A stretch of 1,840 nucleotides of DNA, from NCBI RefSeq assembly GCF_003334255.1, contig NZ_QOWU01000146.1; one strand, written 5' to 3'. Made by a program: the position numbers and the translations under genes. The notes under the pieces are model-generated. The model had not been told where the DNA came from, made no database searches, and worked only from the letters and a program-made list of their open reading frames with translations. Positions 1,625 through 1,745 of the stretch are shown in pieces (position 1 is the stretch's first letter; every line of letters starts with the position of its first letter). This stretch comes from Escherichia coli. GTDB taxonomy: Bacteria > Pseudomonadota > Gammaproteobacteria > Enterobacterales > Enterobacteriaceae.

Positions 1625-1745
1625 GAAAATTTTCCGGGAACCATGTCCGGTTTCTCTTCAAGTTAACTATATGAAAAATAAAAAAAGAGGTCTTCTGTGA
1701 ACCGGACATGCACAAAAAATAGACATGTAAGCCGGACATGACCGG
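1625..1745. promoter_or_regulatory. Array of an 11-bp motif AACCGGACATG (one inverted copy, two direct copies) plus overlapping short palindromes; putative operator region
   Basis: Exact 11-mer at 1700-1710. Its exact reverse complement CATGTCCGGTT at 1642-1652. A 10/11 copy AGCCGGACATG at 1730-1740, and a partial GACATG at 1722-1727. Direct copies are 30 bp apart; the inverted pair encloses a 47-bp AT-rich segment containing an A-tract (1675-1687). Palindromes GAAAATTTTC (1625-1634) and TTCCGGGAA (1632-1640) lie just upstream. The array sits 45-160 bp upstream of the GTG at 1788. Confidence 0.5.

Follow-up and report, generated by a model that had tools for sequence, protein, structure and literature searches.

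An array of 11-bp repeats upstream of the terminase small subunit gene of an Escherichia coli lambdoid prophage is very probably a cosB packaging signal

Introduction

A cosB subsite composed of R boxes and a site for IHF belongs to textbook phage biology, so the kind of element dealt with in this work is a known one. In lambda-like cos phages, accurate nicking of cosN and the onset of packaging both depend on cosB. In cosB of the complex type, the elements follow one another in the order cosN, R3, I1, R2 and R1; the R sequences are bound by the terminase small subunit (TerS), and the bend produced by IHF lets a dimer of the TerS DNA-binding domain bridge R3 and R2 (PMC9026076, PMC4669245). 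Both R3 and its distance from cosN are critical in this arrangement, and in the phages that display it (lambda, 21, phi80, Gifsy-1 and Monarch) R1 is oriented like R3 and opposite to R2 (PMC9026076, PMC4669245). The R1 box of lambda is accessory, and N15 has none (PMC4669245). The cosB types named in the literature are those of lambda/phi80, 21, N15/Monarch and Gifsy-1 (PMC4669245, PMC9026076).

If bp 1 of the cohesive end is taken as the origin of the count, the elements of lambda are R3 at 50-65 (PMC9026076), the I1 core at +74-86 (read from the sequence), R2 at 109-124 and R1 at 151-166, with the start of nu1 at 191. Those of phage 21 (M81255) are R3 at 50-65, I1 at 72-86, R2 at 107-122 and R1 at 150-165, with the start of gene 1 at 189; the whole I1 feature of this phage spans +72 to +86 and its 13-mer core +74 to +86. 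Concerning the sequences of the boxes, those of lambda and phi80 are of the form CGTTTCCtTTCT and are bound by Nu1; the boxes of phage 21 are bound by its own TerS, gp1. The cosB of N15 is a simple one, with a single R3 and no IHF site, and this R3 reads GAGGTTGTTGTT (PMC4669245).

The present analysis concerns a stretch of 1,840 nucleotides of an E. coli contig (NZ_QOWU01000146.1), hereafter the window, near the right end of which a first-pass annotation, made from the letters alone, had recognized an array of an 11-bp motif and had interpreted it as an operator. It is considered here, with a probability of about 90%, that the array is cosB, the packaging-recognition subsite of a lambda-like temperate prophage in E. 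coli. Judging from the whole of the analysis, the repeats are very probably the binding sites for the TerS encoded directly downstream.

Results

Occurrence and distribution of the 11-bp motif

A motif scan of the window gave two exact copies of AACCGGACATG, one on the minus strand (1642-1652) and the other on the plus strand (1700-1710), which form an inverted pair with an A/T-rich segment between them. A third copy, with 10/11 identities and the sequence AGCCGGACATG, lies at 1730-1740 on the plus strand, as a direct repeat of the second one at a spacing of 30 bp. These copies, referred to below as R3, R2 and R1, were all found where the first-pass annotation had placed them and with the 30-bp spacing that it had described; a fourth copy, also with 10/11 identities (AACCGGTCATG, 1737-1747, minus strand), had been missed. 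This partial inverted copy overlaps R1 and turns the R1 region into the near-palindrome AGCCGGACATGACCGGTT.

With up to two mismatches allowed, there were 5 matches to the motif in the whole window versus 0.53 expected, and 0/200 dinucleotide-preserving shuffles reached 5 matches, which bears out the earlier opinion that the array was unlikely to be due to chance. The 9-bp core of the motif, CCGGACATG, occurred three times in the 50-kb prophage locus, in all three cases within the zone interpreted here as cosB, and the motif was found in none of the other intergenic regions of the same locus; the idea that it might recur at other promoters was not sustained. Across 85 related loci, the core was found 242 times in the cosB zone and twice outside of it, in 241 kb where 1.8 occurrences were expected by chance. 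So, it can be said that the motif is not a dispersed one, a point for which a check had been proposed.

These results bear directly on the reading of the array as a product of chance, or as a dispersed genomic repeat, with no specific function. The short length of the motif is all that favors it. It is refuted by the shuffles, by the restriction of the core to the cosB zone, with only a chance rate outside of it, and by the preservation of position and spacing across genera that is described below, and its probability can be taken as negligible. The absence of the motif from all the other intergenic regions of the prophage counts also against the operator, i.e., against an array of three sites through which the helix-turn-helix (HTH) protein encoded downstream would autoregulate its own promoter and perhaps a divergent one. 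What recommended this reading was the presence of repeated and inverted sites upstream of an HTH gene, bracketing a bendable A/T tract.

Prophage context and cohesive-end site

A chromosomal segment of E. coli 7/2 matches the window with 100% identity; it is located inside a complete lambdoid prophage inserted between potC and potB, which also carries an integrase, an excisionase and CI/Cro-like regulators. The order of genes in this prophage is int ... Q, holin, lysozyme, Rz, the region of the array, TerS, TerL, W (head-tail joining protein), portal, protease, D and E (decoration and major capsid proteins), FI, FII and tail, with a full tail module. The window itself opens with the 3′ end, cut by its edge, of a lysis gene for an Rz-like spanin (1-191, plus strand; PHROG 13 'Rz-like spanin', E 1.5e-24), where the endopeptidase Rz is annotated in related phages. 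Further along the prophage, the TerS gene overlaps at its 3′ end with the gene for the large subunit TerL (GpA_ATPase and GpA_nuclease).

Upstream of the array, the stretch 1588-1608 reads TTACG / GGGCGGCGACCT / CGCG and is identical to cosN of lambda and phage 21. The nicking site cosN was thus placed at 1591-1606, with the 12-nt cohesive end GGGCGGCGACCT at 1593-1604 and the predicted nick of the top strand at 1592/1593. The linear record of phage 21 (OL657228) ends exactly at the equivalent of window position 1592, and the right end of the genome of this phage shares 98.6% identity with window 202-1592. The heptamer GGGTCCT at 1563-1569 (plus strand) corresponds, at an equal offset, to the annotated packaging-termination subsite cosQ of phage 21 (OL657228); it is identical also in lambda, and cosQ is upstream of cosN in the orthologous loci too.

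From the prophage gene order, the array is therefore flanked by cosN and by the gene that opens the late head operon. It had been described earlier as lying in a divergent control region between the genes of a secreted protein and of a regulator. This description does not hold, as the supposed secreted-protein gene, a minus-strand open reading frame at 1193-1444, showed no family match and is absent from the RefSeq annotation. The context argues in two more ways against the operator: the TerS gene comes first in the late operon, after Q and the genes for lysis, and no sigma-70-like promoter was predicted on the plus strand between 1600 and 1790 (consensus scan only). At least 80% of window 1560-1840 was matched in 1155 of 5426 complete E. 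coli genomes, O157:H7 included.

A satellite identity was discarded, as TerL and a full set of head and tail genes follow TerS. The cos sites of phage-inducible chromosomal islands (PICI) work with Rpp proteins, which redirect the TerS of a helper phage; unlike these, the protein of the window is a complete TerS with a C-terminal half of the Nu1 type.

Identity and predicted fold of the protein encoded downstream

The gene that starts with GTG at 1788 is annotated in RefSeq as 'terminase small subunit' (WP_000235436.1, 169 aa). Its product matches over its full length PHROG 57 (terminase small subunit), with an E-value of 1.7e-55, a family common to lambda Nu1 and phage 21 gp1, and its residues 49-150 match Pfam Phage_Nu1 (PF07471), with an E-value of 1.4e-18. 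By BLASTP, the similarity to the known proteins was confined to the C-terminal half, with 46% identity to lambda Nu1 over residues 73-164 and 40% identity to phage 21 gp1, and nothing aligned between the N-terminal domain and those of lambda and phage 21. A search of NCBIfam returned no family and no regulator match, and a search of PDB sequences gave nothing meaningful. In view of these assignments, the product is not the transcription factor that had been supposed from its N-terminus; its family, its C-terminal homology to Nu1 and its position immediately before TerL all speak for a terminase small subunit and against an operator.

Within this TerS family, conservation is highest over the N-terminal 50 residues. 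When the full-length model was submitted to Foldseek, only non-significant matches were obtained, the best one with an E-value of 0.88 (MerR proteins, 6hn7). Residues 1-58 were modelled again alone, because the long helices probably swamped the small domain in the full-length search. The new model (pLDDT 85) shows a helix at 4-10, a helix at 15-22, a wing and a helix at 38-54, i.e., a predicted winged HTH fold of the MerR-like kind; the Foldseek list for these residues includes the domain of lambda gpNu1 (1j9i), with non-significant E-values. A profile of the N-terminal domain compared by hhalign with the N-termini of lambda, 21, phi80, N15 and Gifsy-1 gave a probability of 25%, which is weak, yet with the HTH in register. 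The HTH noticed earlier at the N-terminus of this gene is thus retained by the structure model. The same fold is used also by transcription factors, a circumstance that by itself would agree with an operator.

Layout of the array compared with known cosB sites

The offsets within the window are counted from position 1593, which is bp 1 of the cohesive end. The first conserved element is the cosN-proximal segment TATGAAAATTTTCCG, at 1622-1636 on the plus strand, equivalent to I2 of phage 21, which is annotated in M81255 at +30 to +44. This segment is nearly invariant in the 44 variants described in the next section and is kept in all the orthologs, in which it served as alignment anchor. It is followed by R3 (+50 to +60, 1642-1652, minus strand), which is proposed as the critical TerS binding site, by a core of an I1-like IHF site (+72 to +84, 1664-1676, minus strand), by R2 (+108 to +118, 1700-1710, plus strand), inverted with respect to R3, and by R1 (+138 to +148, 1730-1740, plus strand). 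Between the array and the TerS gene, a Shine-Dalgarno-like GAGGT was read from the sequence at 1778-1782 (plus strand), 6 nt before the start codon, and GAGGTGA precedes the TerS start codon in the orthologs. The part of the TerS gene contained in the window (1788-1840, plus strand, starting at +196) codes for helix 1 of the winged HTH and for the beginning of its recognition helix.

The IHF-like core TTTCATATAGTTA has 2 mismatches to the consensus WATCAANNNNTTR and is followed by an A-tract at 1677-1691. Matches to this consensus at 2 mismatches are not enriched in the whole window (10 versus 18.5 expected), and the core is non-significant alone. The weight given to it derives from its position, on the strand that bears the annotated I1 in phage 21 and within 2 bp of that site, and from the better cores of the orthologs: an IHF-like core was present at about +72 to +84 in the 13 lineages compared below, with 0-2 mismatches overall and 0-1 mismatch in the orthologs. 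The earlier remark that the inverted pair brackets a bend-prone A/T segment gains in this way a more precise content, since an IHF-like site is there at the offset of the annotated I1 of phage 21.

The likeness to phage 21 is extensive. The cosQ and cosN sequences are identical, R3 starts at +50, R2 is at about +107 and inverted with respect to R3, the IHF-like core is on the strand of I1, the TerS gene begins at about +190, the core of the box (CCGACATG in phage 21) is very close to CCGGACATG, and the DNA to the left of about window position 1640 is 96-99% identical. On the other hand, the box of the window has one extra G and different flanks, its TerS has an N-terminal domain that BLASTP does not align with that of phage 21, and R1 is direct at 30 bp from R2, whereas R1 of phage 21 is inverted and about 40 bp from R2. 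With lambda, the window shares the identity of cosN and an inverted pair of R3 and R2 with R3 starting at +50. The sequence of the lambda/phi80 boxes is, however, unrelated to that of the window, the recognition helix is IRTIQNWQ versus DRQLRRLQ in the window, where the wing is also shorter, and the two R1 boxes are oriented in opposite ways. N15 differs from the window, which has the complex layout of three boxes and an IHF-like site, also in the sequence of R3 and in the DNA-binding domain; a simple layout like that of N15 is found, however, in distant relatives of the window TerS.

These distant relatives, which share the N-terminal domain, comprise three phages (Pseudomonas phage LPPA33, Aeromonas phiARM81ld and E. 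coli phage 705R4) as well as prophages of Pseudomonas, Escherichia whittamii and alphaproteobacteria. They contain one or two boxes of the AACCGGAA type on the minus strand, directly before the early start codon. In the three with a left end that can be placed (L010, L011 and L097), the boxes are at about +52 to +69.

Phage 21 and its relatives cease to resemble the window at about position 1637-1640, two bases short of R3. Past this point, matches were found only in the PhiR12 phage group and in many E. coli prophages. In different lineages, this class of cosB is joined to cohesive-end sequences of the lambda, Gifsy-1 and N15 types. It seems reasonable to interpret from these various junctions that cosB and the TerS DNA-binding domain form an exchangeable specificity cassette, a behavior that parallels the genetics of lambda-21 hybrids (PMC9026076).

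Conservation of the boxes among close variants and across genera

Conservation in the orthologous regions, for which a check had also been proposed, was strong at two levels. The first one consisted of 44 distinct sequences of close variants, from E. coli prophages with nearly identical TerS. A scan of viral contigs yielded only proteins 99% identical, and a scan of genome contigs gave 10 loci; the divergent orthologs were obtained by exact-protein look-ups. The second level comprised 13 enterobacterial lineages with TerS 60-100% identical, from E. coli, Klebsiella, Salmonella, Citrobacter, Enterobacter, Leclercia and metagenomic contigs.

Among the close variants, R3 was invariant in 44/44 and the core of R1 was also invariant. 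Varying columns were 3 of 27 in the cores versus 43 of 111 elsewhere (Fisher p 0.004, permutation p 0.0008, values that are only indicative as the sequences are related), and the most variable stretches were the spacers 1681-1699 and 1711-1729. Among the 13 lineages, the offset between R3 and R2 was 58 bp in every case (13/13), with unrelated spacer sequences, and R3 was at a constant offset counted from the conserved segment beside cosN.

By contrast with this fixed distance of the boxes from cosN, the distance from R2 to the start codon varied from 37 to 93 bp across lineages, the opposite of what an operator would suggest. When this is added to the points made above, it is highly improbable that the array is an autoregulatory operator. 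The earlier proposal can be divided in two parts. That the sites bind the adjacent HTH protein is upheld as a very probable prediction; their assignment to the class of regulatory operators is not, because the protein is TerS, no sigma-70-like promoter is predicted on the plus strand, the operon is a late one and the array adjoins cosN.

The R1 box behaved differently from R3 and R2. About half of the lineages had no R1, in agreement with the accessory role that lambda R1 is reported to play (PMC4669245), so R1 is probably accessory here too. Where conserved, it was direct with R2, at 30 bp in the window and in lineages L111, L115 and L116, and at 42 bp in Klebsiella (L106), and not opposite to R2 as expected of a complex cosB. 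This orientation is considered as a variant difference that leaves the cosB interpretation in place, because lambda uses R1 only as an accessory site and N15 does without it, and it is reasonable thus that the higher-order assembly of TerS may differ from that of lambda. One locus (L020) displayed a clean 30-bp deletion fusing R2 and R1, the outcome to be expected when direct repeats recombine.

The overlapping inverted copy at 1737-1747, which forms the 3′ arm of a hairpin with R1, carried mutations or had been replaced in 7 of the 44 variants, with no compensating change, and was not present in L111, L115 and L116, although these retain the plus-strand box. From the uncompensated changes and the absence in distant lineages, this copy is probably incidental or lineage-specific, and the functional element of the region would probably be R1 and not the inverted copy. 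The hairpin has a predicted folding energy of -11.5 kcal/mol with a z-score of -2.5 and is followed by a T-run, so that it resembles a Rho-independent terminator. This candidate was rejected, since conservation of the 3′ arm and compensatory changes in it were both lacking, and the terminator-like appearance is probably incidental because of this poor conservation.

The same hairpin is the main argument for a dual use of the array, in which it would be cosB and, in addition, TerS bound to R1 and R2 would damp late read-through transcription or translation of TerS, or the R1 hairpin would attenuate. R1 and its inverted half do fold in a terminator-like manner, and R1 sits 40-60 bp before the start codon, upstream of the ribosome-binding site. 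Such a regulatory addition to cosB is nevertheless very unlikely, given the unconserved 3′ arm, the lineages devoid of the inverted copy and the many lineages in which R1 is altogether missing. Moreover, no Rfam family was matched in the window, and late transcription in lambdoid phages is Q-antiterminated.

Covariation between the boxes and TerS residue 20

Within each phage, all the boxes share one and the same variant, which means that they have changed in a concerted manner. The predicted recognition helix of TerS comprises residues 15-22, and the variant of the box tracks residue 20. In 7 lineages with Arg20, C is found at position 8 of every box (AACCGGACAT; ...GGACAT), while in 15 lineages with Asp, Asn or Thr at residue 20, the base at position 8 is A (AACCGGAAAT, AACCGGAAGT or AACCGGAAC), with ...GGAAAT as the counterpart of Asp or Asn. 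The rule relating residue 20 to position 8 was predicted after 8 lineages and held in 5/5 of those fetched afterwards, in an association that may stem from few independent evolutionary events.

Arginines commonly recognize a guanine from the major groove. Because of this, it seems reasonable to interpret that Arg20 would contact the C:G pair of box position 8, as far as can be deduced from the covariation. The covariation and the concerted change of the boxes also lend indirect support to the predicted binding of TerS to them.

Discussion

The features described above can be accommodated in a mechanism built by analogy with lambda and phage 21. IHF would bind and bend the A/T-rich I1 segment between R3 (1642-1652) and R2 (1700-1710), so that the inverted R3 and R2 would face each other and be bridged by a dimer of the TerS DNA-binding domain. 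From R3, which keeps a constant distance of some 50 bp to the nick site, TerS would anchor TerL, which would nick cosN at 1592/1593 and 1604/1605 to produce the 12-nt cohesive ends. The complex would then remain on the cosB-bearing end and dock on the prohead, and packaging would start. The third box, R1 (1730-1740), would be an accessory site that stabilizes the complex. According to this scheme, the sequence of the box would set the packaging specificity; the AACCGGACAT class is distinct from those of lambda/phi80, 21 and N15.

Concerning previous knowledge of this class, no description of the AACCGGACAT box class and its DNA-binding domain was found in the open literature searched, nor were binding, cutting or packaging experiments on it, and a full-text search for the motif string matched only papers on p53 response elements. 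It is put forward tentatively, at rather less than an even chance, that the class represents a previously uncharacterized family of packaging specificity among lambda-like phages, which is widespread in Enterobacteriaceae, occurs in about one in five complete E. coli genomes (O157:H7 among them) and has a code readable from covariation, i.e., Arg20 with AACCGGACAT and Asp/Asn20 with AACCGGAAAT. If this were true, there would be at least two sub-specificities, which would decide which of the co-resident prophages package one another, and the direct orientation of R1 would imply an assembly of TerS on cosB unlike that of lambda. The class appears to hold a natural switch of sub-specificity, and the covariation offers a testable rule of recognition for a winged-HTH TerS.

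From a practical point of view, the case serves as a warning for annotation: arrays of repeats upstream of a small HTH gene in the late region of a prophage are cos or pac signals, not operators.

Beyond this, cosB and the TerS DNA-binding domain constitute the module that chooses which DNA a lambda-like terminase packages. E. coli pathogens harbor many co-resident lambdoid prophages, several of them defective, and a defective prophage can be mobilized when its cos matches the terminase of a neighbor. Cross-packaging of Sp4 and Sp14 of O157 Sakai has been proposed from their near-identical cos sequences (PMC2669165). With the AACCGGACAT class occurring in about a fifth of complete E. coli genomes, it would become possible to predict, at the level of sequence, groups of prophages able to cross-package and the mobilization of virulence prophages.

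Organization and variation of the proposed cosB

The 11-bp boxes of the proposed cosB are R3 (1642–1652, minus strand), R2 (1700–1710, plus strand) and R1 (1730–1740, plus strand). In one prophage variant (L020), a clean 30-bp deletion has fused the equivalents of R2 and R1 (window 1700–1740) into a single box, as expected for recombination or slippage between direct repeats. In two other loci (L068 and L086), the segment right after the R1 core (ACCGGTTTTGTTG...) is swapped for a longer, unrelated one, the last base of the R1-equivalent box is altered, and the Shine-Dalgarno context differs too.

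Terminator-like hairpins followed by T-runs were flagged at both CCGG-containing boxes, at 1729–1748 (the R1 hairpin, −11.5 kcal/mol, z −2.5) and at 1634–1650. The arms of these two hairpins showed no conservation in the relatives.

Concerning the more distant relatives of TerS, the terminase small subunit, tandem TTCCGG hexamers (TTTCCGGTTCCGGTT) were found directly before the TerS start codons of L009, L010, L011 and L094–L101, their hosts being Pseudomonas, Aeromonas, E. whittamii and alphaproteobacteria. In the loci with a placeable left end (L010, L011 and L097), the hexamers lie at about +52 to +69, counted from bp 1 of that end. These tandem hexamers constitute a simple cosB resembling that of N15, and the half-motif they consist of is the one used in the window.

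Between the R-box cores of the window (CCGGACATG, 1642–1747) and phage 21 (CCGACATG, L001, 216–331), one extra G is the only difference. The TerS DNA-binding domains of phage 21 and the window are too divergent for a BLASTP alignment. The near-match of the cores may reflect shared ancestry, convergence or partial cross-specificity.

Open reading frames to the left of cos

A lipoprotein-like ORF (503–829, plus strand), with an LAVGC lipobox and a TonB C-terminal-like domain, lies between Rz and cos. It carries conflicting labels, 'TonB family protein' in RefSeq versus 'Rz-like spanin' in PHROG 1267, and may be a moron. A small gene of 59 aa (952–1131, minus strand) matches PHROG 4843, of unknown function (E 3e-46), and is hypothetical in RefSeq; in the equivalent DNA of the phage 21 record, plus-strand ORFs are annotated instead. 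The "secreted-protein gene" of the first-pass annotation is presumably a putative 83-aa ORF (1193–1444, minus strand), which has a signal-peptide-like N-terminus (MKIRNILAISLATSSFSCLA...), no match in PHROG and no annotation in either the RefSeq record or phage 21.

Modular exchange in the cos region

A mosaic junction was located at 1637–1640. To its left, the window shares 96–99% identity with phage 21 and its relatives, over their right end and cosN (the nicking site). To its right, from R3 on and with TerS included, the window is of another lineage. With the conserved segment next to cosN on one side of this breakpoint and R3 on the other, cosB and the TerS DNA-binding domain behave as an exchangeable cassette. 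Furthermore, several cohesive-end sequences were found joined to one cosB class: lambda-type (GGGCGGCGACCT) in the window, L106 and L093, Gifsy-1-type (GGGCGGCAGCGT) in L109, and N15-type (GGGCGGCGTCCG) in L110. Since one class is combined with three types of end, these sequences indicate independent reassortment of cosN and cosB.
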